A stretch of DNA of 64,000 nt. Origin: Chloroflexota bacterium (lineage in GTDB: Bacteria; Chloroflexota; Limnocylindria; P2-11E). Under the pieces are notes generated by a model. That model had not been told where the DNA came from, ran no database searches, and was given only the letters and a program-made list of their open reading frames with translations. Below, in pieces: positions 3,773 to 46,931 of the stretch. The stretch is from the NCBI GenBank assembly GCA_031404235.1, contig JANNHF010000143.1, positions 23,999 to 87,998 of the forward strand, in the 5' to 3' direction. A program made the translations under genes and the position numbers. The first letter of the stretch is position 1; each line of letters starts with the position of its first letter.

Positions 3773-3794
3773 GGCGCGCGATTGTCGCACCGCT

Positions 3795-4016
3795 CTAGCC
3801 GATCGCGCGCCTTCGCGCGAAGCGACGCAGCGCGACCGCGCCCCAGATCGCCTCGACGAGCGCGAATGGCCAGGTGCCGGCGAGCCACCCGTACATCGCC
3901 GCGGCCCAACAGGCCAGGCCGAACGCCAGCACGAAGTAAGGGGAGCGGTCCTCCGCGGCGTAGCACGCAAGCATGACCGCGACGCTGGCAAAGCCGAATA
4001 CCGTGAGGGGATCCAC
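3795..4016 (-). CDS. small two-helix membrane protein (hypothetical)
   Basis: C-terminal 73 aa of ORF 3795..4145 (VDPLTVFGFASVAVMLACYAAEDRSPYFVLAFGLACWAAAMYGWLAGTWPFALVEAIWGAVALRRFARRRAIG) has high GC3 and two TM helices; GTG start with GAAAGG upstream. Sits 20 nt upstream of the Hsp70-like gene on the same strand. Confidence 0.4.
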   Translation of the reverse strand: MDPLTVFGFASVAVMLACYAAEDRSPYFVLAFGLACWAAAMYGWLAGTWPFALVEAIWGAVALRRFARRRAIG

Positions 4017-4101
4017 GCACGCCTTTCTAGCCGCACTTGCGCGAGGCCGCCATCTGAGCGCCCCCCTCCAGCGGTGGGGGGTCGACACTGGGGTAAGAGT
4101 C

Positions 4102-4130
4102 TTGACAATGCTATTGGTAACTTTTATACA
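4102..4130 (+). promoter_or_regulatory. sigma-70-type promoter TTGACA-N17-TATACA in an AT-rich island; TSS predicted at or within 1-2 nt of the hspR ATG (leaderless)
   Basis: tcTTGACAatgctattggtaacttTTATACAcataagacATG: the only AT-rich stretch for kilobases. -10 ends 8 nt before ATG 4139 and there is no SD. Imperfect inverted repeat TTGACAAT/ATTGGTAA and CAATgctATTG overlap the -35 (possible HspR operator). Confidence 0.5.
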
Positions 4131-10691: not shown

Positions 10692-11792
10692 ATGAGGGTC
10701 CTCGTCGTGTTGTTCCTGGTCCTGTGCGCCGCGTGCGACGCCATACCGGGACGTGTCTACACGCTTACGGCCTCACCCACCACTGACCCTCTCGCCGTGA
10801 GCGTCGCGCCGGCGCCAAGCGCGACACCCACCGCCTCAGTCGCTCCAACTGCCACGGCTCGACCAACACCCACACCGACGCCGTCGCCGAAACCCATCGC
10901 CGAGATGCTCACGCAGATCGACCCCGCGAAGCTCGACGACCACCTGCGCGCCCTGACGTCATTCGTGTCGCGTCATCCGCTCCACCCCGGCCATGCGAAG
11001 GCCGTCGCATACCTGATGGAGCAGCTCTCCGCGATCCCGGGCGTGGTGGTCCAGGACGTCCCGACGTCGTACAACGGCGTCCGCCTCGACAACATCTTCG
11101 CGACGATCAACCCGCTCGCAGGCAGCGGGGCGGAGGGCTTCCTCGGCGGCGCGGGCATGATCAGCGCCCACTTCGACTCGACTGCGAACCGCACGCCGGG
11201 GTGGCGCCCCGCGCTGGATCCCGCCCCCGGCGCCGACGACAACGCGACCGGCACCGCGGCGCTGCTCGAGTACGCGCGGATCCTGGCCGCGGACCGCGCG
11301 TCGCTGCGCATGCCCATCGTCCTCGCGTTCTTCGACGGTGAGGAGTATTTCTTCAAGGGCAGCCTCGCGTATCTGCAGTCGCTCCCGCCGCCGAATCCGT
11401 ACCGTTGGGTGATCAACATCGACATGGTCGGATTCAATCCGCTCGCAGACCGGCTCGACCTCGTGTACTACACGCCGAACTCCGCGTCGCTGCGGGACCG
11501 TGTGAGGGACGCGAACCAGCGCTATGCGATCGGCGTCTCGCCGCTGGTCGAGCAGCTCGCGACCAGCGACGCCTTCATCCTCGACGCAGCGCCGTTCGGT
11601 CTCATCGGCGGCGTACCGTCGGTCGCGCTCGTTCAGCGCTACGGCGAGATCGACCGCACGTTCCCCGGGAACTTCACCTTCCACACGGTGGATGACACGC
11701 CAGACAAGATCACGAACAAGCGGCTTTGGCTCAAGGCCGCGAAGCTGACGCTCGCGACGGCGCTCGAGCTCGCGCGCGGAGCCCAGCTCTGA
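10692..11792 (+). CDS. M28-family zinc aminopeptidase, lipoprotein
   Basis: Signal peptide + lipobox (LVLCAAC), Pro/Thr linker, then M28 motifs (SAHFDS..., GADDNATGTAALLEYARIL, FFDGEEYFFKGS). Confidence 0.8.
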   Translation: MRVLVVLFLVLCAACDAIPGRVYTLTASPTTDPLAVSVAPAPSATPTASVAPTATARPTPTPTPSPKPIAEMLTQIDPAKLDDHLRALTSFVSRHPLHPGHAKAVAYLMEQLSAIPGVVVQDVPTSYNGVRLDNIFATINPLAGSGAEGFLGGAGMISAHFDSTANRTPGWRPALDPAPGADDNATGTAALLEYARILAADRASLRMPIVLAFFDGEEYFFKGSLAYLQSLPPPNPYRWVINIDMVGFNPLADRLDLVYYTPNSASLRDRVRDANQRYAIGVSPLVEQLATSDAFILDAAPFGLIGGVPSVALVQRYGEIDRTFPGNFTFHTVDDTPDKITNKRLWLKAAKLTLATALELARGAQL

Positions 11793-12109
11793 CCCGACGG
11801 ATCAGCCGCCGCGCCCAGCTCGCGATATTCGCGGGGCTCGCGGCGATCTTCGTGATCGCCTTTCTCTACCTGCGGCCGCCCGATGGCACGCTCAGCGACA
11901 CGGAGTACGTCGCTATGGCGAAGAGCACGGCGCAGGGACAGCTCTACTTCAAGAAGTACGACGCGCCGTGTCAGGTCATCCGTGTGTGGACGGTCCAGGT
12001 GAACTGCGACATCGTTCCGGCGGGCGCGCGTTCGACGGAGAAGTTCCGCGTCCACATCGATCCGCGCACGAACAAGGTCATCGAGGTCGAGGCGCAGTTC
12101 ACGCCCTGA
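11726..12109 (+). CDS. hypothetical protein with one N-terminal TM anchor; start uncertain
   Basis: ORF overlaps peptidase 3' end by 67 nt; convincing part begins around LTRRISRRAQLAIFAGLAAIFVIAFLYL (TM) then soluble ~80 aa. No family recognised. Confidence 0.35.
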   Translation: MAQGREADARDGARARARSPALTRRISRRAQLAIFAGLAAIFVIAFLYLRPPDGTLSDTEYVAMAKSTAQGQLYFKKYDAPCQVIRVWTVQVNCDIVPAGARSTEKFRVHIDPRTNKVIEVEAQFTP

Positions 12110-12620
12110 TGCTCTCGGCGCAGTAGATGCGTCCGAGGAAGCGACTCGGGACGCTCGCGAGCTTCCGGGTGCCGCTGAAGCCGTTCGCGTCGGCGAGCGA
12201 CCGCCAGGTCTCGAACGACAGCGGGTGGGGGACCCAGTGGTTCCCCTTGTCGGCGTCGTACTCGACGAGCAGCAGCCGTGCCGATGGCCTCAGCATGTGG
12301 TGGACGAGCGTGAGCACCTGAGCCTTGTCCTTCACGAAGTGGAGCGAGTTCGCCATCACGATGCCGTCGAGTGAGGCGAGCTCCATCGGCTTCGTGAAGT
12401 CCGCAGTGAGGGTCTGGACCGTGGCGCCGCCCGGATGAAGAGCGCGCTCGAGCTCACGCAGTGCGGCGCGGTCGCGATCGACCGCGATCACTTCGCCTTC
12501 CGTGCCGATGAGCTCCGCGAGAGCGAGCGTGAAAGCTCCGGTCCCGGCGCCGAGGTCGGCCCAAGCACCGCCCGGAGTCACGCCGCCCTTCAGGAGGCGA
12601 ACGTGGTCCGCGTGATCCAC
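12099..12620 (-). CDS. class I SAM-dependent methyltransferase
   Basis: ADLGAGTGAFTLALAELIG (motif I) ... VDRDRAAL ... DGIVMANSLHF. GTG start chosen at 12620 because it forms a TAGTG overlap with the dtd stop; the track start at 12653 would overlap dtd by 34 nt. Confidence 0.65.
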   Translation of the reverse strand: MDHADHVRLLKGGVTPGGAWADLGAGTGAFTLALAELIGTEGEVIAVDRDRAALRELERALHPGGATVQTLTADFTKPMELASLDGIVMANSLHFVKDKAQVLTLVHHMLRPSARLLLVEYDADKGNHWVPHPLSFETWRSLADANGFSGTRKLASVPSRFLGRIYCAESIRA

Positions 12621-15032: not shown

Positions 15033-16784
15033 GTGCCCCGCGATGCCGTCACGTACGACAACGAAGGCGTCGCCGCGGTCCTTGATGAGATCGGCGATCT
15101 CCTTGAGCTGAAGGGCGAGAACGTCTTCCGCGCCGTCACGTATCGCGCGGTCGCGCGCGCCATCCGAGATCTGCGCGAGCCCATCGCGACGCTGGTCGAG
15201 CAGGATCGCCTCGCCGAGATCCCCAAGGTGGGTCCGTCGGTGCGCGACGCGATCACGCAGCTCGTGAGCACGGGCACTTCGCTGCGCCACGAGGAGCTGA
15301 AGGCCGCGGTGCCGTCCGGACTCATCACGCTCCTGCGCGTGCCGGGCGTCGGGCCGGCGACGGCCCGGATCATCTACGACAACCTGAAGATCACGACCGT
15401 CGACGAGCTGGAGGAGGCGGCGAAAGCCCATCGCCTGCGTGAGCTCCCGAAGATCCAGGCGAAGACCGAGGAGAACATCCTGAGGTCGATCGCGTCGCTG
15501 AAACAGCGCACCGGCCGGAACCTCGTCCATCACGCGCGGGCCGCGGCGACGTCGATGGTGGACTGGCTGCGGCAGGAGACCGGGACCCGGGCGGTCGGGG
15601 TCGCGGGAAGTCTGCGTCGCTACCGGGAGACGATCGGCGACGTCGATCTCCTCGTCGCCTCCGTCGCGGCCGCACCGATCATGGACGCGTTCGTCCGGGC
15701 GCCTTCGGTCGAGCGCGTGCTGGCACACGGCGAGACGAAGACCTCGGTCATCGTCGCGCGTGGGCTGCAGATCGACCTCCGCGTCGTCCCGCCCGAGTCG
15801 TGGGGCGCCGCGCTCCTCTATTTCACGGGCTCGAAGGAGCACAACGTGCGGCTGCGTGGCCACGCGCTGAAGAAGAAGCTGCTGCTCAACGAATACGGCC
15901 TCTATCGGGTCGGCGCCGAGGCGCGCGGCCAGGAGATCGCGTCACGGACCGAGGAGGACATCTACGCCGCGCTCGGCATGGACTGGATCGCGCCGGAGCT
16001 ACGCGAGGACCACGGCGAGATCGACGCTGCGATCGCGCACGCCCTGCCGACGCTCGTGACGCTTCCAGAGATGCGCGGCGACCTCCATACCCACACGAAC
16101 TGGACCGACGGTCGCGACACGCTGGCCGACATGGCACGTCGCGCGCGCGACAAGGGCTACGCGTATTACGCCGTCACCGACCACTCGCCGGGTCTCGGTA
16201 TGACGAACGGCCTGGGCGCGGAGCGCATCACCGCACGCGTCGAGGAGGCGCGGCGGCTCAACCTGGAGCTCGCGCCGTTCAGGATCCTCGTCGGCACCGA
16301 AGTGGACATCCGCGCGAACGGAGCGCTCGACTACCCCGACGACATGCTGGCGCGCTTCGACATCGTCAGCGCGTCGGTGCACTCGGCGTTCGGCCAGACG
16401 CGCGAGATCATGACCGAGCGCGTGCTCACCGCGATGCGGCATCCCTTGGTCACCGCGATCTCACACCCGACAGGGAGGCTGCTCGAACGGCGCGATCCGC
16501 ATGCGCTCGACCTCCAGGCGCTCATCGACGCCGCCGCGGAGACGGGCACGTGGATCGAGATCAACGGCGGACCCGAACGGCTCGACTTGCCGGATACCTG
16601 GGTCCGTAAGGCCCTCGACAAGGGCGTCACGCTCGTCGCGAACTCCGACGCGCATTCGATCGAGGAGCTCGACTGGATGGAATACGCCGTCGCGAACGCG
16701 CGCCGTGGCTGGACGCCGCGCGGAGCGCTCGCGAACACTTCGGAGCTGGACGAGATGCTCACGAGGCGCAAGCGCCGCGGATGA
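15033..16784 (+). CDS. polX: family X DNA polymerase with C-terminal PHP domain (PolX)
   Basis: 583 aa; HhH and Pol-beta-like N-terminal half (GSLRRYRETIGDVDLLV), C-terminal PHP motifs (DLHTHTNWTDG, AVTDHSP, NSDAHS). Confidence 0.9.
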   Translation: MPRDAVTYDNEGVAAVLDEIGDLLELKGENVFRAVTYRAVARAIRDLREPIATLVEQDRLAEIPKVGPSVRDAITQLVSTGTSLRHEELKAAVPSGLITLLRVPGVGPATARIIYDNLKITTVDELEEAAKAHRLRELPKIQAKTEENILRSIASLKQRTGRNLVHHARAAATSMVDWLRQETGTRAVGVAGSLRRYRETIGDVDLLVASVAAAPIMDAFVRAPSVERVLAHGETKTSVIVARGLQIDLRVVPPESWGAALLYFTGSKEHNVRLRGHALKKKLLLNEYGLYRVGAEARGQEIASRTEEDIYAALGMDWIAPELREDHGEIDAAIAHALPTLVTLPEMRGDLHTHTNWTDGRDTLADMARRARDKGYAYYAVTDHSPGLGMTNGLGAERITARVEEARRLNLELAPFRILVGTEVDIRANGALDYPDDMLARFDIVSASVHSAFGQTREIMTERVLTAMRHPLVTAISHPTGRLLERRDPHALDLQALIDAAAETGTWIEINGGPERLDLPDTWVRKALDKGVTLVANSDAHSIEELDWMEYAVANARRGWTPRGALANTSELDEMLTRRKRRG

Positions 16785-17065
16785 CCAGGGCTCGCTTCGT
16801 GGTGCGCGGGCGCGTGCAGGGTGTGAACTTCCGCGCCGCGGCCATGCGCGAGGCGATGGCTCACGGACTGAACGGTTGCGTGTGGAATCGAGCGGATGAC
16901 GCAGTGGAGCTGATCGCGGAGGGCGACGCCCATGCTCTCGACGCGCTGGCGACGTGGCTCGCGCACGGACCGCGCCTCGCGAAGGTCGAACGCGTCGATC
17001 GGACGGATCTCGGTGGTGAGTCTCGCTACCCGGACTTCACGGTCGCGTACGCGGCGCCGGAATGA
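16781..17065 (+). CDS. acyP: acylphosphatase
   Basis: 94 aa, VRGRVQGVNFRAAAMREAMAHGLNGCVWNRADDAVELIAEG is the acylphosphatase signature; ATGA overlap with the polX stop. Confidence 0.85.
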   Translation: MTRARFVVRGRVQGVNFRAAAMREAMAHGLNGCVWNRADDAVELIAEGDAHALDALATWLAHGPRLAKVERVDRTDLGGESRYPDFTVAYAAPE

Positions 17066-17066
17066 G

Positions 17067-17465
17067 CTAGCCGCGGCGCCTCTTCTTGCGCTTCTCCGGC
17101 TGCGGGAAGTACCGCTGCCGGCGCTGCTCGCGCTCCCACGCCGCTTCCTGCGGCGGTAGCACGTACAGATACATCAGCCCGAGCGCCGCGATGTTGGCCG
17201 CCATCGTGACACCGATGACCCAGAACGGCAGCTTCGCGATGATCCAGACCAGGATCACGATCAGGAAGACGATGTTCGTCCACAACGCCCATTGCTTCAG
17301 TGCGTTCTCGGCCGGCGGCGTCGCGCCGCGGCGCCTCCAGTTGTACCAAACGATGTTCGCCACGAGCGAGACGGCGACCGCATAGACCGCGGGCCAATAG
17401 AACCGCGACTCGGTGTTGAAAGGCTGAAAAAAACGGTCAACGAAGTGACCGAGGTCGAACGGCAC
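17067..17465 (-). CDS. hypothetical membrane protein (3-4 TM helices, basic C-terminal tail)
   Basis: 132 aa, high GC3, helices such as WALWTNIVFLIVILVWIIAKLPFWVIGVTMAANIAALGLMYLYVL. Confidence 0.45.
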   Translation of the reverse strand: MPFDLGHFVDRFFQPFNTESRFYWPAVYAVAVSLVANIVWYNWRRRGATPPAENALKQWALWTNIVFLIVILVWIIAKLPFWVIGVTMAANIAALGLMYLYVLPPQEAAWEREQRRQRYFPQPEKRKKRRRG

Positions 17466-19069: not shown

Positions 19070-19768
19070 CTACCCCAGCTCGATGTAGCGGAAGGCCTCC
19101 GCAGCCGGCACGTTCCACGCGGCACCGATGCTCTTCGCCCACGTTCGCATGCGTTTGGGGAACTCGGTGCGCCCGCCGAGCTGCGATTTGTGCGATCGCA
19201 GAGCCTTGATCTTCTTATCGAGCGTGCCGCTGATGTCGAACCACACGTTCGGCTCGCGCGTGCCGAACAGGAGGACGCGGGAGACGCGATGCTTCGCGAG
19301 CTTGCCACCGCCCAGCTGTTCGGGAAAGAAGAGGTGGTCGCGCGCCGCGATCACGCCATCAAGGCCCGACCATCCCGCGACACGGTGGTCGGGGTGGACC
19401 TGGTAGTGGCCCCATGGATCGTTGGTGAAGACGAGGTCGGGCTTGTACTCGCGGATGACGCGACAGACCTCCTCGCGAAGCGCCATCGACCGCTCCAGCT
19501 CGCCGTCGTGGTGCCGGAGAAAGACGAATTCCTTGACGCCGATGGCCTCGCCGGCCGCGCGTTGCTCTCTCTCGCGCGTCTGCGCGAGCGCCTGGGGCGA
19601 CAAGTCCGGATCGTGTGTGCCCTTGTCGCCGCTGGTGAGAAGGCAGTAGGTGACGTGCGTCCCGCGCTCGATGAAGGAGGCGAGCGTGCCCGAGCATCCG
19701 AAGTCGACGTCATCGGGGTGCGCCACGACGGCCATCGCACGCTTCGGGATCGCGAATGCTTCCGCCAC
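19070..19768 (-). CDS. PIG-L / LmbE-family N-acetylglucosaminyl deacetylase (MshB/BshB-like)
   Basis: AVVAHPDDVDFGCSGTLA (AHPDDE-type motif), VIREYKPDLVF, HPDHRVAG. Start set at in-frame GTG (LKVAEAF) 2 nt after the GT stop with GGAGGT 6 nt upstream; the track's longer N-terminus is Arg-rich junk. Confidence 0.7.
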   Translation of the reverse strand: MAEAFAIPKRAMAVVAHPDDVDFGCSGTLASFIERGTHVTYCLLTSGDKGTHDPDLSPQALAQTREREQRAAGEAIGVKEFVFLRHHDGELERSMALREEVCRVIREYKPDLVFTNDPWGHYQVHPDHRVAGWSGLDGVIAARDHLFFPEQLGGGKLAKHRVSRVLLFGTREPNVWFDISGTLDKKIKALRSHKSQLGGRTEFPKRMRTWAKSIGAAWNVPAAEAFRYIELG

Positions 19769-19770
19769 CT

Positions 19771-21036
19771 TTAGACCTCCACCGCCGGAGATGACGCGAG
19801 CACCGATCCGTAGAGCGCATCGATCTTCTCGCCGACGCTTTGCCAGGTGTAATGCTCGGCGCGATCTCGCGCGCCGTGCGCGAGATGCATCCGCAGCCGA
19901 TGATCCGTGAGCAACTGTTCGATCGCGGCCGCAAGCGCCTCGTCGTCGCCAGCGGGAACGAGGAGGCCCGACTCGCCGTGTTCGATGAGCGTCTGAAGGC
20001 CGCCGACGCGTGTGCCAACGACGGGTGTTCCACACGCCATCGCCTCGAGTGCGACGAGACCGAAGGATTCCGTCAGCGACGGCACCGCGCAGACGTCCGC
20101 CGCGGCGTAATAGAGCGCGAGCCGGTCTTGGTCGAGCGAGCCTACGAAGTTGACGTTCGCCTCCATGCGGTGCTCGTGCACAAGTCGGCGCAGCTCCTGG
20201 ATCTTCTCGGTCTCGGGCGCGTCGTCTTGCGGATCGAGCGCACCGCCGACGACGAGGAGGCAGACGTCACTGCGAAGATCGGGTCGGCGGAGGAACAGCA
20301 GGCCCAGCGCGCGCAGCAGCACGTCGATCCCCTTGATCTGCTCGATACGACCGACGAACAGCACGATGCGCTCGCATTGGTCGCGGCCGAGGCGATCGCG
20401 CGCGTCCGCTTGGCGGATCGGCCGGAACACCATCGGATCGACGCCGCAGGGGATGATCCGGACCCTGGCCGGATCCGCGCCGTAGAGGTCGCGCAGCTCG
20501 TCGAGCTCGATCTCGCTCGCCGCGACGATCGCCGCGGACTCCTGGATGGCCTGGCGCTCGATCTCAACGCGCACGTCACTCTCGCCGTCGATGTCCTCGT
20601 CCATGACTTCGCGCTTCACCAGACCCAGGGTGTGGAACATCTGGATGCGCGGCACTCCCCAGCGTGCTGCGAGGGTGCGCGCGACGCTTGCGGACAGCCA
20701 GTAGTGCGAATGTATGAGGTCGTACGACCGACCCTCTGCGGCGACGTGCTCGTCGACCTTCGCGGTGAACTCGTCGAGGTGGTCGTACACGTCCATCTTC
20801 GGCCAGTACCCGATCGGTCCGGATTCGATGTGGATGACACGCGCGTTCTCGCCGAACTGCTGGATGCGCGGGTCGTACTTCTCGCGCCAGCGCGTGAACA
20901 CGTCCACCTCGATACCGCGCTGCCCGAGCACACGCGCCAGCTCGCGCACGTAGACGTTCATTCCGCCCGAGTCCCGACCACCAAGTTTCGCGAGCGGACA
21001 CGCATGGACCGACAGCATCGCGACTCGGCGCGTCAT
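19771..21036 (-). CDS. GT4 glycosyltransferase, MshA-like (D-inositol-3-phosphate / acceptor GlcNAc transferase family)
   Basis: RVAMLSVHACPLAKLGGRDSGGMNVYVRELARVL...DLIHSHYWLSASVARTLAARWGVPRIQMFHTLGLVK...ESFGLVALEAMACGTPVVGTRVGG closely follows the MshA N-terminal and EX7E-region pattern. Confidence 0.75.
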   Translation of the reverse strand: MTRRVAMLSVHACPLAKLGGRDSGGMNVYVRELARVLGQRGIEVDVFTRWREKYDPRIQQFGENARVIHIESGPIGYWPKMDVYDHLDEFTAKVDEHVAAEGRSYDLIHSHYWLSASVARTLAARWGVPRIQMFHTLGLVKREVMDEDIDGESDVRVEIERQAIQESAAIVAASEIELDELRDLYGADPARVRIIPCGVDPMVFRPIRQADARDRLGRDQCERIVLFVGRIEQIKGIDVLLRALGLLFLRRPDLRSDVCLLVVGGALDPQDDAPETEKIQELRRLVHEHRMEANVNFVGSLDQDRLALYYAAADVCAVPSLTESFGLVALEAMACGTPVVGTRVGGLQTLIEHGESGLLVPAGDDEALAAAIEQLLTDHRLRMHLAHGARDRAEHYTWQSVGEKIDALYGSVLASSPAVEV

Positions 21037-22016
21037 AGACGTGTGGCGTCGAGCCGCCCGAGCCAGCGGTCCGTCGCGCCGAGGTCGTACTTGTACGGCT
21101 CGTCGCCTCTCAGCAGGTCGTAGGTGTCGAAATGCTCGCGGATCGCCTCACGGATCGCCCAGGCGTGGCTGACGATGCCGATCGACAGCGATGCGAGCGC
21201 CGGATCGTACGCGGCGTTGTAAAGCGCGAGCGTGCCGCGGTAAGCGAACGCGAACAACACGGCGGCGTCTTCGTCGTGCGCACGCAGCACACCCAGACGC
21301 AGCCGTCCCAGCGGTGCGAGCGCGTCGGCGATGTCGCGGAAGAACCGCTCGACGGGCGCTGTCATGAAGTCCGCCTTCTCGCCGCGCGACAGCCGGTGCA
21401 GCGCGAAGAAGCGATCCAGTGTCGCGCCGCGTTCTGCGTCGCCGGCCCAGCGGAAGGTGGCCTGGGTGGCGTTTTCGAGGCGGCGGATCTTTCGGCGCAG
21501 CTCGTGCCGCTCCTTCTTCCCGAGGCTCTGCACGTACGTCTCGAAGTCTGCGGGGAGGCCGAGGCGCGGGCTGGTGATCAGGCGCGAGCGCTCGACGGCG
21601 TAGCCGCCCTGCTCGAGTGCGACCGCGACCGCGTCGAGGGTCGGCGAGTCCTCGGGCACGAATTCGATGCGGACCCGCCGCGGTGCATCAGTGACCATCC
21701 AGTTGGCGACCGCGGTGGCGATCTCGCGTTCCCGACCCGCCGGTGCGACCACGTCCTGCTCGTCGGTGAGCTCGCCGCCTGCGAAGCGGATGGTGCCGTC
21801 CACGTCGCGCGCGAGGGCCGCGATGCCGTGCGGTGCGTCGCCGACCGCGAGTGTCACCGGTTCGGCGCTGTCGTGTTCGCGCGCCACACGGATCCAGTCC
21901 GGAGTGAGGAAGATGCTGGCTGGCGATCGCCGTTCGGCGATCTCTGACCAGGCTTCGGAGAGCTCGGCGGGGGCGCGCGGGGTACAACCCGCGTCAGGCC
22001 CGGTCATGAGGGTCAC
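21033..22016 (-). CDS. GNAT-fold acyltransferase of the FemAB/CelD-like (Acetyltransf_6) type
   Basis: 327 aa; C-terminal LYNAAYDPALASLSIGIVSHAWAIREAIREHFDTYDLLRGDEPYKYDLGA matches that family's conserved tail. ATGA overlap with the downstream GT. Start GTG 22016 or ATG 22007. Confidence 0.55.
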   Translation of the reverse strand: MTLMTGPDAGCTPRAPAELSEAWSEIAERRSPASIFLTPDWIRVAREHDSAEPVTLAVGDAPHGIAALARDVDGTIRFAGGELTDEQDVVAPAGREREIATAVANWMVTDAPRRVRIEFVPEDSPTLDAVAVALEQGGYAVERSRLITSPRLGLPADFETYVQSLGKKERHELRRKIRRLENATQATFRWAGDAERGATLDRFFALHRLSRGEKADFMTAPVERFFRDIADALAPLGRLRLGVLRAHDEDAAVLFAFAYRGTLALYNAAYDPALASLSIGIVSHAWAIREAIREHFDTYDLLRGDEPYKYDLGATDRWLGRLDATRL

Positions 22017-22076
22017 GTGCTTTCGAGTTTAGGGGGCACGCCGGATGAACGTCCGCGTCGTACCTATCATTCCCGC

Positions 22077-23237
22077 GTGCTCGACCGCGACGCGCCGCGG
22101 GTCGTGATCGCTCCTCAATCGTTCAAGGGCAGTGCCGACGCGGTCGCCGTCGCGCGCGCTATCGCGCGCGGCATACGGCGCGTTTGGCCTCGCGCGGAAT
22201 GCGTCGAGCTGCCGCTCGCGGATGGGGGAGAGGGGACTGCGCTTGCCCTCGTGCGTGCGACGGGCGGCGAGCTGCGGAGCGCGCGCGTGCACGATCCGCT
22301 CGGACGTGAGATCGACGCGCAGTGGGGCGTGCTCGGCGATCGCGCGACCGCCGTCCTCGAGATGGCCGCAGCGAGCGGGCTTCCGCTCCTTCGCGACGAC
22401 GAGCGCGATCCACGCATCACGTCCACGCACGGCACCGGCGAGCTCATCCTGGCCGCGGCGGCTTCGGGCGCGCAGCGCATCGTCATCGGCATCGGCGGTA
22501 GCGCGACGAACGACGGCGGCGCCGGCATGGCGCGCGCGTTCGGCTACCGCTTCTTCGACGCCGACGGCGGCGAACTGCCGGAGGGTGGCGCCGCCCTCGC
22601 GCGTCTCGCGCGCATCGAGGGGCAGACCGATCCGCGTCTCATCCGGCCTGCGATCGACGTCGCGTGCGACGTGCGCAATCCGCTGCTCGGCCCCGAGGGC
22701 GCGACCGCGGTCTACGGACCGCAGAAGGGCGCGACGCCCCAGATCCAACGCGAGCTTGAGGCGGCGCTCACGCGTTACGCGGACGTCGTCGAGGCATTCG
22801 TGGGTCGTGACGTGCGGAGCGTGCCCGGAGCGGGCGCGGCCGGTGGTCTCGGTGCGGGGCTCATCGCCTTCCTCGATGCGCGACTCGTCTCTGGAGCGTT
22901 GCTCGTCCTCGACGCCGTCGGGTTCGACAAACGGCTGGTCGGAGCGGACCTCGTGGTGACGGGCGAAGGGCGCATCGACAGGCAGAGCATGTACGGCAAG
23001 CTCACGCATGCCGTGACCGTCGCGGCGAAACGGCGCGGCATCCCGGTCGTCGCGGTGGCGGGGATGATCGGTCCGGGTCACGATGCGATGCGTGACGCCG
23101 GCGTCGAGGCGATCGAGACCCTCGCGGGCCAGTCGGAGGCCGACCGCGACGCTGCGATGCGCGACCCGCTGCCGCGCATCGAGGATGCCGCGGAGCGACT
23201 GGTCCGTGCTCGTGCAGCGGCCCGCGGAAGCCGGTAG
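22077..23237 (+). CDS. glxK: glycerate kinase (GlxK/GarK family)
   Basis: VVIAPQSFKGSADAVAVARAIARGI matches the glycerate kinase N-terminus (MKIVIAPDSFKES...); GGSATNDGGAGMARAFG is the family motif. The track start at 22017 abuts the divergent gene start (CACGTG), so a downstream GTG (22077 or 22104) is more likely; start uncertain. Confidence 0.7.
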   Translation: MLDRDAPRVVIAPQSFKGSADAVAVARAIARGIRRVWPRAECVELPLADGGEGTALALVRATGGELRSARVHDPLGREIDAQWGVLGDRATAVLEMAAASGLPLLRDDERDPRITSTHGTGELILAAAASGAQRIVIGIGGSATNDGGAGMARAFGYRFFDADGGELPEGGAALARLARIEGQTDPRLIRPAIDVACDVRNPLLGPEGATAVYGPQKGATPQIQRELEAALTRYADVVEAFVGRDVRSVPGAGAAGGLGAGLIAFLDARLVSGALLVLDAVGFDKRLVGADLVVTGEGRIDRQSMYGKLTHAVTVAAKRRGIPVVAVAGMIGPGHDAMRDAGVEAIETLAGQSEADRDAAMRDPLPRIEDAAERLVRARAAARGSR

Positions 23238-23248
23238 GGTCTAGCCCC

Positions 23249-24238
23249 ATGCTCGGCCCGCCGGTCCCCACCGATCGGACCTCCAGCCTTGAGCTCGTGC
23301 GCATCACCGAAGCGGCCGCGCTCGCGGCCGCCCACTGGATGGGCCATGGCAACAACGATCGCGCCGACGAGGCCGCGGTCGAGGCGATGCGGAAGGCGAT
23401 GGACGAGGTCGCGTTCCACGGCACCGTCGTCATCGGCGAGGGCGAGCGCGACGAGGCACCGATGCTCTACATCGGTGAGAAGGTGGGGCGTGGTGACGGT
23501 CCCGAGGTCGACATCGCGGTCGATCCGCTCGAGGGCACGAACCCCGTCGCGAAGGGACGCGCGAACGCGCTGGCGACGATCGCGGTATCCGAACCCGGCG
23601 GCCTGCTCCACGCGCCCGATACCTATATGGAGAAGCTCGTCGTCGGGAAGCCGGCTGCGGGACAGGTCGATCTCGACCGTCCGGTCGCGGAGAACCTGAA
23701 GATCATCGCGAGGTCGCTGAATCGTGACGTCGACGACCTCACGATCGTGATCCTCGACCGACCGCGCCACGAGCAGCTCGTCGCGCAGGTGCGCGCTGCC
23801 GGAGCGCGCATCAAGCTCATCGAGGACGGTGACCTCATGGCCGCGATCTCGGTGGCCGTGGCGGGCACCGGTGTGCACGCGGTCATGGGCATCGGCGGCG
23901 CGCCCGAGGGCGTTCTTGCCGCGGCCGCGCTGAGGTGCCTGCGCGCCGAGATCCTGGGGCGCCTCAAGTTCCGCAGCAACGAGGAGCGCGAGCGTGCCAA
24001 GAAGATGGGCATCGTCGACGACGGCCGCGTGTACCGCACTGAGGACCTGGCGAGCGGGCGGGACGTGCGATTCGTCGCCACGGGCGTGACCGACGGCGAC
24101 CTGCTGCAGGGAGTGCGCTTCTTCGCGGGCGGCGCTCGCACCCACTCGGTGCTCATGGACCGCCGACTCGGCAAGCTCCGCTTCATCGACACCACCCACT
24201 TCGAGGACCCAGCGAACCCACCCGTCGTCCGTCTCTAG
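23249..24238 (+). CDS. glpX: class II fructose-1,6-bisphosphatase
   Basis: 329 aa; ELVRITEAAALAAAHWMG...DIAVDPLEGT...VMGIGGAPEGV is the GlpX signature layout. Confidence 0.9.
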   Translation: MLGPPVPTDRTSSLELVRITEAAALAAAHWMGHGNNDRADEAAVEAMRKAMDEVAFHGTVVIGEGERDEAPMLYIGEKVGRGDGPEVDIAVDPLEGTNPVAKGRANALATIAVSEPGGLLHAPDTYMEKLVVGKPAAGQVDLDRPVAENLKIIARSLNRDVDDLTIVILDRPRHEQLVAQVRAAGARIKLIEDGDLMAAISVAVAGTGVHAVMGIGGAPEGVLAAAALRCLRAEILGRLKFRSNEERERAKKMGIVDDGRVYRTEDLASGRDVRFVATGVTDGDLLQGVRFFAGGARTHSVLMDRRLGKLRFIDTTHFEDPANPPVVRL

Positions 24239-24296: not shown

Positions 24297-25616
24297 GTGC
24301 CAATGCGCGTCCGCCAGCGACGCATCGCCCCCGAATCGCCGGCCATGCGGCAACTGGGCCAGCGCCTGCGTGAAGCGCGCGTCGCAGCGGGTCTGAGCCA
24401 AGCGCAGCTTGGCGCTCCCTACTACACGCGCGCACATGTCAGCGCGATCGAGCTTGGCAAGATTCGCCCGGCGATGAAGTCCCTCGAACACTTGGCGACG
24501 AAGCTCGGGAAGCCGGTCTCGCACTTCATGGAGGACCGTCAGCTCGAAGAACAGCGAGGTGAACGAGCCGTGGCAATTGCCCGCGCGCACCAACTCACCG
24601 CCGAGGGCAAGGCGGCTGAAGCGATCGAGATTCTCCTTCCGTTGCTCGAGGAAGAGCAGACCCGGTTGGAGCGCGCCGGCGTCCTCCGCACGCTAGGCCG
24701 GGCGTACTGGGAGGCGGGTCTAGGCGCGAAATCCGCGACAGCGTTGCAGGAAGCGCTCGACATCTACCAGGCAAACGGAACCGTCGAGCTGATCGCTCGC
24801 GCGCGCGCCCAGCTCGGTATGGCGCTGCACCTGTTGATGAGCTACGCCGAGGCTGCCGAGCATTTCAGCGAGGCGCTTCGTGCGATGGCGCGTGGTGAAC
24901 TGCGCGACCCTGTGCTCAAAGTCCATGTGCTCCACAACCTCGGTCTCACCTTCTATCAACGGAATGAGTTCTCGCTCGCGCTCGAACACTTCGAACGCGC
25001 GGAGACTGAGGGCGCGGACATCGGCGATCCGAAGTGGCTCGCCTCCCTATTCGCCGCGATAGGAATGTCCTTTCATCAACTGAAGGATTACGACGCCGCC
25101 CTGGCGTACCTCGGCAAGAGCGAGGCTCTCTTCGAATCGATCCGGAACAGATCGCGGGTGGCTGAGATCCGCTTTCAGCGAGGGAGAGGCCTGTTGGCCA
25201 TCGGGCATCGCGCGAAGGGAATGGTCACGCTTCGCGAGGCCGAGCGGCTCGCTGGCGAGGCCGACAACCCTGTACTCGAGACGCGTATCGCAATGATCGC
25301 CGGACTGGCCCAGGTCGAGGGCGGTGAGGAGGCCGTCGGGACCGTGAGCCTACGAAACGCACACTCGCGCGCTGGCGAGCTCGGCGATCGCGCGCTTCGG
25401 GTCGCAACGGCAATAGCGCTCGCTCGTGCAATAAAGGAGCGGGCGCCGAGCGAGGCTGAGAAGGTGCTTCGTGAGGCTATCGAAATAATGCGAGATCGGC
25501 CGGGGCCCGAGCTCGGCGAGACGTATGCGGAGCTCAGCGACGTGCTATCAAGACGGGGGCTTGCCGAAGAGGCACTTGGCTATGCGCGTAGAGCCTTTGA
25601 ACTAGCGAAGCGTTAG
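24297..25616 (+). CDS. XRE-family HTH + TPR-repeat transcriptional regulator, paralog of 13687..14997
   Basis: LGQRLREARVAAGLSQAQLGAP...VSAIELGKIRPAMKSLEHLATKLGKPVSHFMED (HTH) then ~370 aa of TPR-like repeats. Same length class (439 vs 436 aa) and co-linear similarity to the first regulator. Confidence 0.8.
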   Translation: MPMRVRQRRIAPESPAMRQLGQRLREARVAAGLSQAQLGAPYYTRAHVSAIELGKIRPAMKSLEHLATKLGKPVSHFMEDRQLEEQRGERAVAIARAHQLTAEGKAAEAIEILLPLLEEEQTRLERAGVLRTLGRAYWEAGLGAKSATALQEALDIYQANGTVELIARARAQLGMALHLLMSYAEAAEHFSEALRAMARGELRDPVLKVHVLHNLGLTFYQRNEFSLALEHFERAETEGADIGDPKWLASLFAAIGMSFHQLKDYDAALAYLGKSEALFESIRNRSRVAEIRFQRGRGLLAIGHRAKGMVTLREAERLAGEADNPVLETRIAMIAGLAQVEGGEEAVGTVSLRNAHSRAGELGDRALRVATAIALARAIKERAPSEAEKVLREAIEIMRDRPGPELGETYAELSDVLSRRGLAEEALGYARRAFELAKR

Positions 25617-27177: not shown

Positions 27178-27235
27178 GGGAACGGCGAGAGTGTACGTGT
27201 TACGCTTCGACGAAAGTTCAGACGCGATCCTTTTT

Positions 27236-27392
27236 TCATCGAGAAGAGGCTGAGGGAACGGCCCGATGACGCCTCGGCAACCGGCGGAGGCCCGCTACGG
27301 TGCCAACTCCGGCCCTGTAGAACAGGGAAAGATGAGAGAGGGTCGACCCGTAAAGGGCGACTTCTCTTGAATATGGAGAGGTCGTTTTTCAT
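27236..27392 (+). promoter_or_regulatory. SAM-I (S-box) riboswitch with SD-sequestering expression platform, leader of metF
   Basis: CAUCGAGAAGAGGCUGAGGGAACGGCCCGAUGACGCCUCGGCAACC...GGUGCCAACUCCGGCC...GAAAGAUGAGAG matches S-box core blocks. Downstream CUUCUCUU can pair either with GGAGAGG (SD, 11 nt before TTG start 27393) or with the P1 3' strand GAGAGAG; a U5 run follows. Confidence 0.8.
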
Positions 27393-28313
27393 TTGAGCAG
27401 CCTCGCAGCGCTCCTCCGGCAGGGCGAGTTCGTCGTCACCGCCGAGCTCAATCCGCCGAAGAGCGCGTCCGGTGCGGTCGTGAAGCGACGGGCCGGCGTT
27501 CTCAAGGGAAGCGTCGACGCCATAAACGTCACCGACAACAACCGCGGTGTCGCGGCGATGGCAGCGATCCCGGCGGCGTTGTTGGTCCGCGAGGCTGGCG
27601 TGGAGCCCGTCGTCCAGATCACCGGGCGCGACCGGAACCGCATCGCGCTGCAGGCCGACCTGCTCGGTGCAGCCGCCCTGGGCCTGGCCAACTTCCTGTT
27701 CATGAGCGGCGATGACCCGAAGCAGGGGAATCATCCCGACGCCGTGCATGTGAAGGACCTGGACGGTGTCGGTCTCATCAAGATGGCGGTCACGATGCGC
27801 GACGAGCACAAGTTCCTCTCCGGTGACGAGATCCGCCAGGCTCCCGAGTACTTCATCGGCGCCACCGCATCGCCGTTCACGAAACCGATGTCGGCCGACC
27901 TCGAAAAGACGGTGGAGAAGATCAATTCCGGCGCTGACTTCGTGCAAACGCAGCCGGTCTTCGATCTCGCGACGTTCAGCCAGTGGCTCGCCGAGCTCCG
28001 GCGCGTCGGTGGCGGGCGTGGGGCCGCGGTCATCGCCGGCGTTCTCGTCCTTCGTTCCGCCGACCAGGCCGAACGCTTCGCGCGCGTGCCGGGCATCGCG
28101 CTCGAGAAGGACGTTGTCGCTCGACTCAAAAAGGCGGCCGACGGAGAGCAGGAAGGTATCGCCATCGCCGTCGAGATGGTGAAGTCGCTACGCGCGCTGC
28201 CCGGAGTCCACGGCGTGCATATCTACGCGATCGAATGGCCTGAGGCCGTTCCGCTCGTCGCGGAGCGCGCAGGTCTGCTGCCACGACCGAAGGTGAAGGA
28301 GTCGAACCCATGA
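27393..28313 (+). CDS. metF: 5,10-methylenetetrahydrofolate reductase
   Basis: 306 aa, TTG start; FVVTAELNPPKS, AINVTDNNRGVAAMAAIPAALL, QPVFDLATF are MetF features. Confidence 0.85.
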   Translation: MSSLAALLRQGEFVVTAELNPPKSASGAVVKRRAGVLKGSVDAINVTDNNRGVAAMAAIPAALLVREAGVEPVVQITGRDRNRIALQADLLGAAALGLANFLFMSGDDPKQGNHPDAVHVKDLDGVGLIKMAVTMRDEHKFLSGDEIRQAPEYFIGATASPFTKPMSADLEKTVEKINSGADFVQTQPVFDLATFSQWLAELRRVGGGRGAAVIAGVLVLRSADQAERFARVPGIALEKDVVARLKKAADGEQEGIAIAVEMVKSLRALPGVHGVHIYAIEWPEAVPLVAERAGLLPRPKVKESNP

Positions 28314-29272
28314 AGACCACCGTTATCGGCGCGTACCCCAAGATCTCGGACGAGCATCAGGACCTCCGCCGGGCGCTCCACCGCCACGACCGCGGCGAGC
28401 TCGACGCCGATGGACTCTCCGGCGTGCTCGATGAGAGCACGCGCTGGGCGGTCGGCGAGCTCGACTGGGCCGGCGTCGACGTGGTCAACGACGGCCAGGT
28501 CCGGTGGGACGATCTGCTCGCCCCGTTCGCGCGCTCGTGGAGCGGCTGCGACCGCGGGCCGCTCGAGCGCTTCTACGACAACAACACGTACTTCCGCCAG
28601 CCGGTCATCACCGGGCCGATCACCACTGAAGGCACGACGCTCGTGCGCGACTTCGAATTCGCTCGCGGCTTCGCTCGCGGTCAGCTGAAGGCGGCGGTCT
28701 GCGGTCCGCTCACATTCGCGACCCTGGCCGAGGACCACCATTACCGGTCGCTCGAGGACCGCACGCTGGCGGTCGCCGACGCGATCGCAACGGAGATCCG
28801 TGCGCTTGGCGCGGCAGGCGCGACGCTCGTCGACGTCGAGGAGCCCGCGTTGGTGGCCCACCCGGAACACTTCGCGCTCGCGCGCGCGGCCATCGAGCGC
28901 CTCGCCGCCGCCGGCGTGCCGCTGGCGCTCCAGACCTACTTCTTCCCAGCCGATCCTCTGCTCGACGCGCTCGCGGCGTTCCCGGTCGCGCAAGTCGGGA
29001 TCGACCTCCGGAGCCGGGAGACGCACGTTCTCGAAAAGCTGAACACGGTCCGCCAGACGGTCGTCCTCGGCATCGTGGACGCGCGCAACACGCGGGTGGA
29101 GACCGAGAGCGAGGTCGTCGGTCTCATCGAGGCGGCGCTCAAGCGGATCCCAGCGGACTACCTGTGGCTCGCGCCGACAACAGGACTCGAATACCTGCCC
29201 CACGATGTGGCAGTGCAGAAGCTGAAGGTACTGGTCGCGGCGGCGCGCGCGATGGGAGGGGTGAAGGCATGA
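28310..29272 (+). CDS. MetE N-terminal-domain-like protein (separate gene; UroD/MetE TIM-barrel fold)
   Basis: 320 aa, MKTTVIGAYPKIS... resembles the folate-binding N-terminal half of cobalamin-independent methionine synthase; ATGA-coupled to metF upstream and core metE downstream. Confidence 0.6.
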   Translation: MKTTVIGAYPKISDEHQDLRRALHRHDRGELDADGLSGVLDESTRWAVGELDWAGVDVVNDGQVRWDDLLAPFARSWSGCDRGPLERFYDNNTYFRQPVITGPITTEGTTLVRDFEFARGFARGQLKAAVCGPLTFATLAEDHHYRSLEDRTLAVADAIATEIRALGAAGATLVDVEEPALVAHPEHFALARAAIERLAAAGVPLALQTYFFPADPLLDALAAFPVAQVGIDLRSRETHVLEKLNTVRQTVVLGIVDARNTRVETESEVVGLIEAALKRIPADYLWLAPTTGLEYLPHDVAVQKLKVLVAAARAMGGVKA

Positions 29273-30258
29273 GCGATCAGGTACTGCTGACGACAACCGT
29301 CGGCTCGTTCGGCAAGCCGGATTACCTGCAGAGGGCGCGCAACGCGAGTGCGCGCGGCAAGCTAGGCGAGTCGGAGCTCAACGACCTCGAGCGTAAAGCG
29401 ACGGAGGAGTGGGTCCGGAGACAGGAGCGGCTCGACCTCGACATCCTCGTCGACGGCGAGATGTACCGCGGCGACATGGTCGCGTATTTCGCGGAGCGTC
29501 TCGAAGGATTCCGCATCGGCGGCCTCGTCCGCTCGTATGGGAACCGCTACTACCACAAGCCGGTCATCGCCTCGAAGGTCGGACGCCCGAAGCCCATGAC
29601 CGTCGACTGGTTCCGCTACACGCAGTCGCTCACGGATCGCCCGGTGAAGGGAATGCTCACGGGGCCGTACACGATGCTCGACTGGTCGTACAACGAGGCC
29701 TATCGCACGCGGCGTGACGCGGCGCTCGCGCTCGCGGAAGTCGTGCGGCAGGAAGCGGAGGACCTGCAGGCCGCCGGCGCGCGCTACATCCAGATCGATG
29801 AGCCCGCGATCCACGCACGCCCCGAGGAGATCGACATCGCGATCGAGGCGATGGGCGTCGTCACCCAGAACCTCAATGCGAAGACGATCTCGCACATCTG
29901 TTACGGCGACTTCGCCGCGATCTATCCAAAGGTCCTCGACCTCCCGGTGGATCAGCTCGACCTCGCGATGGCGAACTACGGGTACCGGTGGCTCGAGCTG
30001 TTCAACAAGCATCCGTTCACGAAAGAGCTCGCGATCGGCATCGTTGACGTGCACTCGCACGAGACCGAGTCGGTGGCGACGGCGGCCGAGGGGATCCGCA
30101 AGGGCCTGCGACACGTGTCGAAGGAGCGCCTCTTGCCGCACCCGGACTGCGGGCTGAAGACACGCACCGTCGAGGAGTCAGAGGAAAAGTGTCGCGTCGT
30201 CGTCGAGGCGACCAAGGTCGTCCGCAAAGAGCTCGCGCAGCAGAAGGCGCCGGCCTAG
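29269..30258 (+). CDS. metE: cobalamin-independent methionine synthase, catalytic (C-terminal) domain only (core MetE)
   Basis: MSDQVLLTTTVGSFGKPDYL, IQIDEPAI, ICYGDF, PDCGLKTR are the MetE Zn-binding and catalytic signatures. Start ATG 29269 overlaps the previous stop (ATGA); the track's upstream M at 29164 is out of context. Confidence 0.8.
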   Translation: MSDQVLLTTTVGSFGKPDYLQRARNASARGKLGESELNDLERKATEEWVRRQERLDLDILVDGEMYRGDMVAYFAERLEGFRIGGLVRSYGNRYYHKPVIASKVGRPKPMTVDWFRYTQSLTDRPVKGMLTGPYTMLDWSYNEAYRTRRDAALALAEVVRQEAEDLQAAGARYIQIDEPAIHARPEEIDIAIEAMGVVTQNLNAKTISHICYGDFAAIYPKVLDLPVDQLDLAMANYGYRWLELFNKHPFTKELAIGIVDVHSHETESVATAAEGIRKGLRHVSKERLLPHPDCGLKTRTVEESEEKCRVVVEATKVVRKELAQQKAPA

Positions 30259-46868: not shown

Positions 46869-46931
46869 GCGGCCCCCTGCAGTCTGGAACGAGACACCCC
46901 TGATGCGCGTTCGAGCGGCGTGTACGTTGAT

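Follow-up and report, generated by a model that had tools for sequence, protein, structure and literature searches.

What could an acyltransferase, a glycosyltransferase and a deacetylase, encoded by three tightly packed genes, be making together in a soil Chloroflexota bacterium? The genes occupy positions 19070-22016 of a 64,000-nucleotide stretch of contig JANNHF010000143.1, the whole of which we call the window. We propose a cytoplasmic pathway in which the enzymes of the operon make an N-aminoacyl-glucosamine glycoside of the mycothiol or bacillithiol type, a tentative reading whose chances we put not far short of even. A first-pass annotation, made from the sequence alone, had suggested that the acyltransferase replaces the usual ligase and aminoacylates the free amine of glucosamine (GlcN). 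In favour of this are the predicted FemX/MprF/Sbb17 fold of the acyltransferase, its linkage to the glycosyltransferase, the MshD-like and Ino1 genes of related loci and the absence of MshC nearby; against it, the glycosyltransferase and the deacetylase both miss the equivalog cutoffs. The suggestion is partly supported and is the best available hypothesis, strengthened by the comparative and structural evidence that follows.

Organization of the operon

How closely are the three genes joined? The features on which the argument rests are these.

21033-22016, minus strand: acyltransferase (AT); the longest open reading frame (ORF) has 327 residues, and the NCBI start at 22007 gives 324
19771-21036, minus strand: MshA-like retaining glycosyltransferase of family GT4 (GT), 421 residues
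19070-19768, minus strand: zinc-dependent N-acetylglucosamine (GlcNAc) de-N-acetylase of the PIG-L/LmbE type (DAC), 232 residues, GTG start
21033-21036, minus strand: ATGA start/stop overlap of AT and GT, read from the sequence
19775-19780, minus strand: GGAGGT Shine-Dalgarno sequence within the GT 3' end, 6 nucleotides 5' of the DAC GTG
22017-24238, plus strand: glycerate kinase (PF02595, 455 bits) and GlpX-type fructose-1,6-bisphosphatase, divergent from AT and separated from its start by hardly any spacer

The ATGA overlap is a sequence signature indicating translational coupling of AT and GT. At the next junction the GT stop codon TAA (19771-19773) is followed, after 2 nucleotides, by the DAC GTG (19766-19768). 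When the coordinates were reread in the sequence, the three packed minus-strand genes with 4- and 2-nucleotide junctions described by the first-pass annotation were recovered, as was its Shine-Dalgarno sequence for the deacetylase inside the GT 3' end; the motifs that it quoted (DEPYKYDLGA, GGMNVYV, HSHYW, AHPDD and VIREYKPDLVF) are all present in the translations. That of AT ends ...RGDEPYKYDLGATDRW..., and that of GT begins MTRRVAMLSVHACPLAKLGGRDSGGMNVYV...HSHYW. The DAC start is confirmed, because a public gene call on an 88-kb NCBI contig has exactly the same 232-residue product. An exact look-up of the GT sequence gave no match, probably because the public gene call starts elsewhere.

A promoter and terminator scan found no promoter-like site within AT-GT-DAC, and its sole terminator-like match there lies on the opposite (plus) strand and is no more than shuffled sequences give. 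The tRNA and Rfam scans found nothing attached to the operon. At the operon's 3' end lies a convergent purH, with 9 bp between the stop codons. The window has a G+C content of 66-71%, and its proteins have their nearest relatives in metagenome-assembled genomes (MAGs) of Ca. Limnocylindria (Chloroflexota).

Conservation of gene order

Does the arrangement extend beyond this one genome? To answer this we searched 1.84 billion cluster representatives for AT homologues. At E<=1e-3 there were 8,839 matches, of which 244 reached E<=1e-30, and the AT family has thousands of members. A profile of diverse AT homologues from this search was then used to fetch 80 loci from species-representative genomes, 62 of them from outside Limnocylindria. 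In 77 of the 80, AT is succeeded by a GT in the same orientation, and the median spacing between the two is 33 nucleotides. DAC is present in 44 and stands directly after GT in 19. The AT-GT pair occurs in at least seven lineages: Limnocylindria, Dehalococcoidia (including SAR202), Anaerolineales, Thermoflexus, Dormibacterota, Tectomicrobia, Nitrospinota and Thermodesulfobacteriota are represented, with AT identity to the window protein falling to 32-41%. Complete Dehalococcoidia chromosomes, for instance OZ242014.1, OZ220748.1 and OZ240206.1, are among the carriers. Every complete Limnocylindria locus has the full AT-GT-DAC order, even where AT identity is as low as 58%. A second scan covered 80 metagenome loci, found with an AT profile seeded from a different clade, that of the Ino1-linked AT of locus L080; here GT lies directly after AT in 58, and many of the remaining contigs are too short to show a GT. 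Because the order is kept across phyla, the AT-GT arrangement is not due to chance. On this evidence of gene order we conclude that AT-GT is a conserved functional unit and DAC a frequent third member.

Might this unit build a surface polymer? The genes could be read as an envelope or exopolysaccharide system, with a CelD/BcsL-like AT, a GT4 and a deacetylase modifying a surface glycan, or AT could be a Fem enzyme that branches peptidoglycan. We consider this improbable. JGI labels AT homologues 'CelD/BcsL family', and GT4-PF13480 pairs do occur in exopolysaccharide loci. Yet in the 160 loci of the two scans no cellulose synthase, flippase, polymerase, polyprenyl-phosphate transferase or mur gene recurs; neither does cellulose (bcs) or exopolysaccharide machinery, and near AT-GT no polysaccharide-export or peptidoglycan genes do so. 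The lone exception is a Poly_export/SLBB gene downstream in one Tectomicrobia locus (L040), to which may be added a second GT4 upstream in some metagenome loci. What recurs instead is housekeeping: hom, thrC, folE, SHMT, ssb and ribosomal protein genes in Dehalococcoidia, and purH, glyK and glpX in Limnocylindria. Moreover, a Pfam scan detects no membrane-associated domain in AT, GT or DAC, GT keeps the phosphate-binding residues of enzymes with soluble acceptors, and AT has no sequence similarity to FemABX or MurM.

The acyltransferase

What kind of transferase is AT? It matches PF13480 (Acetyltransf_6) at 107.3 bits over residues 168-309, against a gathering cutoff of 22. FemAB_like (PF04339) reaches 16.4 bits, below its cutoff of 27, and the Pfam FemAB family (PF02388) gives no match. 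The first-pass description of AT as an Acetyltransf_6/FemAB/CelD-like acyltransferase is right as to PF13480 and agrees with the FemX-like fold predicted below; at the level of FemAB sequence families it does not hold. That AT might be an orthologue of a known cell-wall Fem enzyme, which the same annotation had named as a finding that would tell against it, is not what we see, there being no PF02388 match and no match among PDB sequences. The single AT sequence has 0 matches in the PDB. A profile of 70 AT sequences returned five matches to unrelated proteins (E 0.15-1.9), which we took as chance. A distant homologue of 809 residues (P0265), considered as an AT-GT fusion, was rejected; it is a tandem AT-AT with two PF13480 modules.

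If sequence says little about the chemistry of AT, what does the fold say? We built an AlphaFold model on an alignment of 70 sequences with 31-87% identity to the window protein. The model (mean predicted local distance difference test score, pLDDT, 94.4; predicted template-modelling score, pTM, 0.90) has two GNAT-like halves. In a Foldseek search of the PDB its best match is Weissella FemX (1xf8; E 1.2e-11, template-modelling (TM) score 0.68). Ranks 1-26 are filled by FemX of Weissella and S. aureus, FemA, the aminoacyl-phosphatidylglycerol synthase domain of MprF, Sbb17/Sba18 and 2hqy; each of them depends on aminoacyl-tRNA save those at ranks 6 and 17, the two chains of 2hqy, an uncharacterised Bacteroides protein. 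MprF and Sbb17/Sba18 are within the top 15. The Sbb17/Sba18 entries are 2026 structures of 'aminoacyl-tRNA-dependent peptide synthases' bound to the amino sugar streptothrisamine. Tandem GNATs that use acyl-CoA rank lower: a clavulanate pathway protein has a TM score of 0.52-0.56 and MshD one of 0.48.

The most conserved feature of AT is a basic helix, KKxRHELRRKxRRL, at residues 167-180, the start of domain 2. Eight of its residues (R170, H171, E172, L173, R174, R175, K176 and R178) are invariant in 70 of 70 sequences. Near the C-terminus E306, Y308, K309 and G313, within DEPYKYDLGA, are likewise invariant. FemX holds the acceptor stem of the tRNA with a positively charged helix of its second GNAT domain, and Lys305 is the sole reactive residue of its active site; Orf11 of the BD-12 pathway is Gly-tRNA-dependent and aminoacylates an amino sugar (PMC12945691). 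The basic helix and the Tyr-Lys pair of AT match this description of the FemX type, an equivalence that we infer from position in the sequence.

Could AT use an acyl-CoA all the same? GT and DAC would then carry out the same first two steps, and AT would put an acyl group other than acetyl (short, hydroxy or fatty) back on the GlcN amine, giving an N-acyl-GlcN-inositol solute or a glycolipid head group. A logic of GlcNAc transfer, deacetylation and N-acylation is familiar from teicoplanin and lipid A. PF13480 belongs to the GNAT clan, and public entries call AT a 'GNAT family N-acetyltransferase' (JGI: 'CelD/BcsL family acetyltransferase involved in cellulose biosynthesis'). Among NCBIfam models it matches BspF only, with 26 bits where the cutoff is 775; BspF is the one PF13480 member with an NCBIfam model and is described there as a crotonyl transferase, an activity that would need an acyl-CoA donor. 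The acyl-CoA tandem GNATs, too, are still structural matches (probability 1.0, TM 0.48-0.56). On the other hand, the 26 closest structural neighbours, 2hqy apart, depend on aminoacyl-tRNA and have clearly higher TM scores, the helix with its eight invariant residues resembles the tRNA-binding helix of FemX, and the MshD-like N-acetyltransferase clustered with AT in related loci makes sense only if AT brings in a new amine. We regard transfer from acyl-CoA as unlikely, though it deserves to be weighed.

The glycosyltransferase and the deacetylase

To what acceptor might GT transfer its sugar? GT4 domain matches in Pfam (140, 135 and 102 bits) establish its family. Its best model is MshA (TIGR03449), at 362.5 bits against 158 for the next family; the BshA model gives 130 bits (cutoff 274). 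The relatives of GT in loci L073 and L080 score 377 and 344 bits on TIGR03449, and for the window GT and that of L073 the MshA model gives 362-377 bits against 145-158 for the next family. Among PDB sequences GT matches MshA of C. glutamicum (CgMshA, 3c48) at 260 bits and the sucrose-phosphate synthase Tll1590 of Thermosynechococcus (TeSPS, 6kih) at 258.

To examine the acceptor site we aligned 68 members of the GT family with CgMshA and TeSPS, using CgMshA numbering. We take the acceptor and phosphate-site residues of CgMshA to be the GGMNVY loop, K78, H109, Y110, H133, T134 and R154, a list that reportedly goes back to Vetting et al. in 2008. The window GT has every one of them. Within the family Y110, H133, T134 and R154 are kept in 68 of 68 sequences, H109 in all or nearly all, M24 in 65, N25 in 60 and K78 in 50. 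TeSPS departs from the MshA type at M24 (Q), H109 (N), T134 (S) and K78 (R). In TeSPS the acceptor phosphate is held by Arg105 and Arg178 (PMC7264703), which in our alignment fall on K78 and R154 of MshA. From these residues GT is predicted to take a small phosphorylated acceptor via an MshA-type site. Inositol phosphate is probably that acceptor, because the site is of the MshA type and because Ino1 is linked to the cluster in a single locus. UDP-GlcNAc is suggested as the donor only because a GlcNAc deacetylase shares the operon. The first-pass statement that the N-terminus of GT follows MshA closely agrees with the site residues; for the whole protein MshA is the leading model (by more than 200 bits), with a score below the equivalog cutoff and a tie with TeSPS.

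DAC is an LmbE/PIG-L deacetylase, as first annotated: it scores 108.6 bits on PF02585 (cutoff 28.2) and has the motifs AHPDD, HPDH (of the HxDH type) and VIREYKPDLVF. Public annotation is equally generic, 'PIG-L deacetylase family protein'. The best NCBIfam model is BshB1 (TIGR04001) at 105 bits, below the cutoff of 182.5, followed by BshB2 at 89 bits, again below cutoff. In the PDB the archaeal diacetylchitobiose deacetylase (Dac) comes first at 139 bits, ahead of LnmX (108), BshB-type enzymes (50-65) and MshB (26). By sequence, then, GT and DAC are best described as 'MshA-like plus BshB/Dac-like', and are not orthologues of either known thiol pathway.

These affinities invite the objection that AT, GT and DAC are functionally unrelated neighbours, GT being for example a synthase of the compatible-solute or sucrose-phosphate type and DAC an enzyme of chitobiose catabolism. 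TeSPS does score as high as MshA against GT, and the nearest solved relative of DAC is indeed a diacetylchitobiose deacetylase. But the residues specific to sucrose-phosphate synthase are not kept in GT, AT and GT appear translationally coupled, and their adjacency persists across phyla at 32-45% identity. We find this explanation very hard to credit.

What of the divergent pair upstream? Glycerate kinase and GlpX stand head-to-head with AT in 17 of the 17 Limnocylindria loci long enough to show them and not in other lineages. Co-regulation, supply of the acceptor or mere inherited synteny may be responsible. Were it supply, the acceptor in Limnocylindria would be derived from phosphoglycerate or glycerate, with glycerate kinase providing it and the product an aminoacyl-GlcN-glycerate, resembling bacillithiol with its malate aglycone. 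This is a variant of our main model, and the phosphate-binding residues of GT would fit any small phosphorylated acceptor. We give the variant little weight. The kinase is linked in one class only and not in the other AT-GT lineages, the acceptor-loop residues are of the MshA type across the GT family, and the only gene of acceptor biosynthesis found joined to the cluster is Ino1.

Genes added in related loci

Do other loci add steps to the three encoded here? Many Dehalococcoidia have the order thrC-folE-AT-GT-DUF502-(tandem GNAT, opposite strand)-DAC. The tandem GNAT, which lies between GT and DAC in 27 of the 62 non-Limnocylindria loci, matches MshD (TIGR03448) over its full length at 114-123 bits (cutoff 163.1); no MshD match was found in the window. 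The presence of an MshD-like gene in the cluster indicates that the AT step leaves a new free amine, and hence that AT adds an amine-bearing group such as an amino acid, not a fatty or short acyl group.

In one unclassified MAG (locus L080) the order is Ino1-AT-GT-DAC, with Ino1 directly before AT. The best model for this Ino1 is the mycothiol type (TIGR03450, mycothiol_INO1), which it matches at 502 bits, short of the cutoff of 638. The metagenome scan seeded with the AT of this locus found no second Ino1-AT-GT-DAC cluster.

Phosphoesterases also accompany the cluster. A PHP-family gene of the CpsB/CapC type follows DAC in L073 (12933-13691) and L046, and five more genome loci (L037, L044, L057, L059 and L066) have one at another point of the cluster region. 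Two Nitrospinota-like loci both have a kinase of the APH (aminoglycoside-phosphotransferase) family upstream of AT, and one of them, L058, has a PAP2 phosphatase (11095-12186) after DAC. The PHP and PAP2 genes are candidates for a sugar-phosphate phosphatase step, the counterpart of MshA2. The window itself carries none of the genes that join the cluster in other loci. The gene after GT in five metagenome loci, considered as the missing phosphatase, was rejected; it is a phosphonoacetate hydrolase, PhnA, at 600 bits.

Three further observations concern single loci or neighbours outside the window. The DUF502 membrane protein stands directly after GT and before the MshD-like gene in L073 (10221-10970), L043 (10178-10843) and about 30 other loci; the window has none. 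Near the cluster in L046 (13080-14482) are two tandem PIG-L deacetylase paralogues, reminiscent of the MshB/Mca pair. On one metagenome contig (L084, 8869-10017) a protein with an FGE-sulfatase domain lies directly after AT-GT; it is weakly EgtB/SenA-like (99.7 bits, cutoff 360), and any link of the cluster to sulfur or thiol chemistry through it would be anecdotal, coming from one contig.

The proposed pathway

If the genes act together, in what order might they do so? Family membership, motifs, site residues, fold and synteny are observed; the substrates, donor, acceptor, phosphatase and capping step below are proposals built on them. In step 1 GT would move GlcNAc from UDP-GlcNAc to a phosphorylated polyol, the likeliest being 1L-myo-inositol-1-phosphate, to yield GlcNAc-α-inositol-phosphate. 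In step 2 some phosphatase would strip the phosphate, the PHP (CpsB-like) or PAP2 genes of related loci being candidates. In step 3 DAC would take off the N-acetyl group and expose the 2-amine. In step 4 AT would form an amide of this amine with an amino acid, most probably drawn from aminoacyl-tRNA; the basic helix would bind the tRNA, Lys309 would be used as FemX uses Lys305, and AT would do the job of the ATP-dependent MshC (or of BshC). In step 5, in Dehalococcoidia, the MshD-like GNAT would N-acetylate the new alpha-amine. In Limnocylindria no MshD-like gene is nearby, and the amine may stay free as in bacillithiol.

Which amino acid would be transferred? Cysteine is suggested by analogy only. 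In the cysteine version the product would be mycothiol (486 Da), which is N-acetylated Cys-GlcN-Ins, or a new Cys-GlcN-polyol thiol, made via a Cys-tRNA-dependent transferase of the Fem fold and not via MshC or BshC. We think this version doubtful, though a fair part of our belief in the pathway rests with it. The attribution of such a thiol to its hosts, namely Chloroflexota (Limnocylindria, Dehalococcoidia/SAR202), Dormibacterota, Nitrospinota and their relatives, is equally doubtful.

Is a conventional ligase encoded nearby? The amide step of the mycothiol pathway is performed by MshC, an ATP-dependent paralogue of CysRS. A Pfam scan of the 45 larger ORFs of the window found no MshC, MshD, BshC or Ino1, KMSKS is missing from every frame of the 64-kb window, and the first 80 related loci contain no ORF resembling a class I synthetase (KMSKS plus HxGH).

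Several facts weigh against the pathway as proposed. The msh genes are unlinked in actinobacteria, as in the M. tuberculosis genome; from this scatter it follows that an MshC may lie elsewhere in these genomes, and this is the main weakness of the model that we prefer. The choice of amino acid, the tRNA dependence and the thiol nature of the product are all inferred. Membership of PF13480 does not by itself imply tRNA dependence, neither the AT sequence nor its 70-sequence profile finds a Fem protein among PDB sequences, and K309 is equated with K305 of FemX by motif and position, not by residue-level superposition. GT at 362.5 bits falls short of the TIGR03449 equivalog cutoff of 462.5 and is 36% identical to CgMshA and to the sucrose-phosphate synthase alike, while DAC reaches only 36 bits on MshB (TIGR03445, cutoff 224.35). 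The MshD-like gene does not reach its cutoff, runs on the other strand and is present in none of the Limnocylindria loci, and Ino1 is next to AT in only 1 of 160 loci.

Comparison with known systems

How does the proposed pathway relate to those already described? Mycothiol biosynthesis in Actinomycetota (Ino1, MshA, the MshA2 phosphatase, MshB, MshC and MshD) follows the same logic of glycosylation, deacetylation and formation of an amide on the 2-amine. The resemblance extends to the MshA-like best model and site residues of GT, to a deacetylase of the LmbE family, and to the MshD-like tandem GNAT and, once, the mycothiol-type Ino1 of related loci. However, GT, DAC, the MshD-like protein and Ino1 all fall below their equivalog cutoffs, and DAC is BshB/Dac-like. 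In place of a linked CysRS-paralogue ligase there is a Fem-fold AT that appears translationally coupled to GT. The genes are clustered here whereas the msh genes are scattered in mycobacteria, and they are carried by Chloroflexota and further phyla outside the actinobacteria.

Bacillithiol synthesis (BshA, BshB and BshC) likewise relies on a GT4 and a deacetylase of the LmbE type. Among NCBIfam models DAC scores highest on BshB1, and the lack of a nearby MshD-type capping enzyme in Limnocylindria would leave a free amine, as in bacillithiol. On the other side, GT earns only 130 bits on BshA, no BshC was found in the scan of the window, and GT has phosphate-binding residues whereas malate, the acceptor of BshA, is not phosphorylated.

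With FemABX, MprF and the Orf11 type (Sbb17, Sba18) AT shares, in its model, a double-GNAT fold, and it has a conserved basic helix in domain 2 and an aromatic-Lys pair near the C-terminus that may correspond to theirs. Enzymes of the Orf11 type already aminoacylate the amine of an amino sugar, a precedent for the chemistry proposed for AT. AT differs in having no detectable sequence similarity to these enzymes, in belonging to PF13480 and not to PF02388 or DUF2156, and in a context that resembles primary metabolism in several phyla, as against the peptidoglycan, lipid and antibiotic clusters in which they are found. CelD/BcsL of PF13480 and BspF belong to the same Pfam family as AT, but cellulose or exopolysaccharide context is lacking and BspF gives 26 bits against 775; what sets the AT subfamily apart from them is its fixed pairing with an MshA-like GT. 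As the proposed ligase, AT would belong to a superfamily other than those of MshC and BshC, and its hosts are neither actinobacteria nor Firmicutes.

What would follow if the proposal were correct? A literature search found no published description of the AT-GT-DAC cluster. To our knowledge no major low-molecular-weight thiol or comparable GlcN-based metabolite has been identified for Chloroflexota and several other abundant soil, groundwater and marine phyla, and our search of the literature found none for them. If the cluster makes such a metabolite, it would fill this gap and provide a marker gene for metagenomes. AT would be the first aminoacyl-tRNA-dependent enzyme of the Fem type in a pathway of the mycothiol/bacillithiol kind, extending Fem chemistry beyond cell walls, lipids and antibiotics. 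Should the cysteine version be true, it would be a case of non-orthologous displacement in which the precursor of a redox buffer is taken straight out of the pool that serves translation, and several abundant uncultured phyla would have their low-molecular-weight thiol identified. The operon is small, with three soluble proteins in 3 kb, and so can be put directly to the test by heterologous expression.

Other features of the window

Beyond the operon several features of the window merit record.

27233-27338, plus strand: S-adenosylmethionine (SAM) riboswitch (RF00162, 83 bits), upstream of MTHFR (27393-28313)
28310-29272 and 29164-30258: two adjacent short MetE-like genes after MTHFR, each of about 320-360 residues
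13687-14997 and 24297-25616, both plus strand: paralogous XRE-type helix-turn-helix regulators with MalT-like TPR domains, flanking the region
15033-17065, plus strand: PolX-type DNA polymerase with a PHP domain (583 residues), whose stop overlaps the start of a small acylphosphatase gene (16781-17065)
46920-48626, plus strand (568 residues); 72-857, plus strand (261 residues); 17067-17465, minus strand (132 residues): three ORFs with coding-like G+C at third codon positions (GC3) and no Pfam match
2420-4108, minus strand: atypical Hsp70-like protein of 562 residues

The short MetE-like pair may represent a cobalamin-independent methionine synthase in split or 'core' form. The XRE/MalT-like TPR regulator family recurs in Limnocylindria loci, and the 132-residue ORF resembles a small membrane protein. 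In the Hsp70-like protein the match to Hsp70 is mainly C-terminal, at residues 444-549, and its gene adjoins those for Lon, DnaJ and ClpB.

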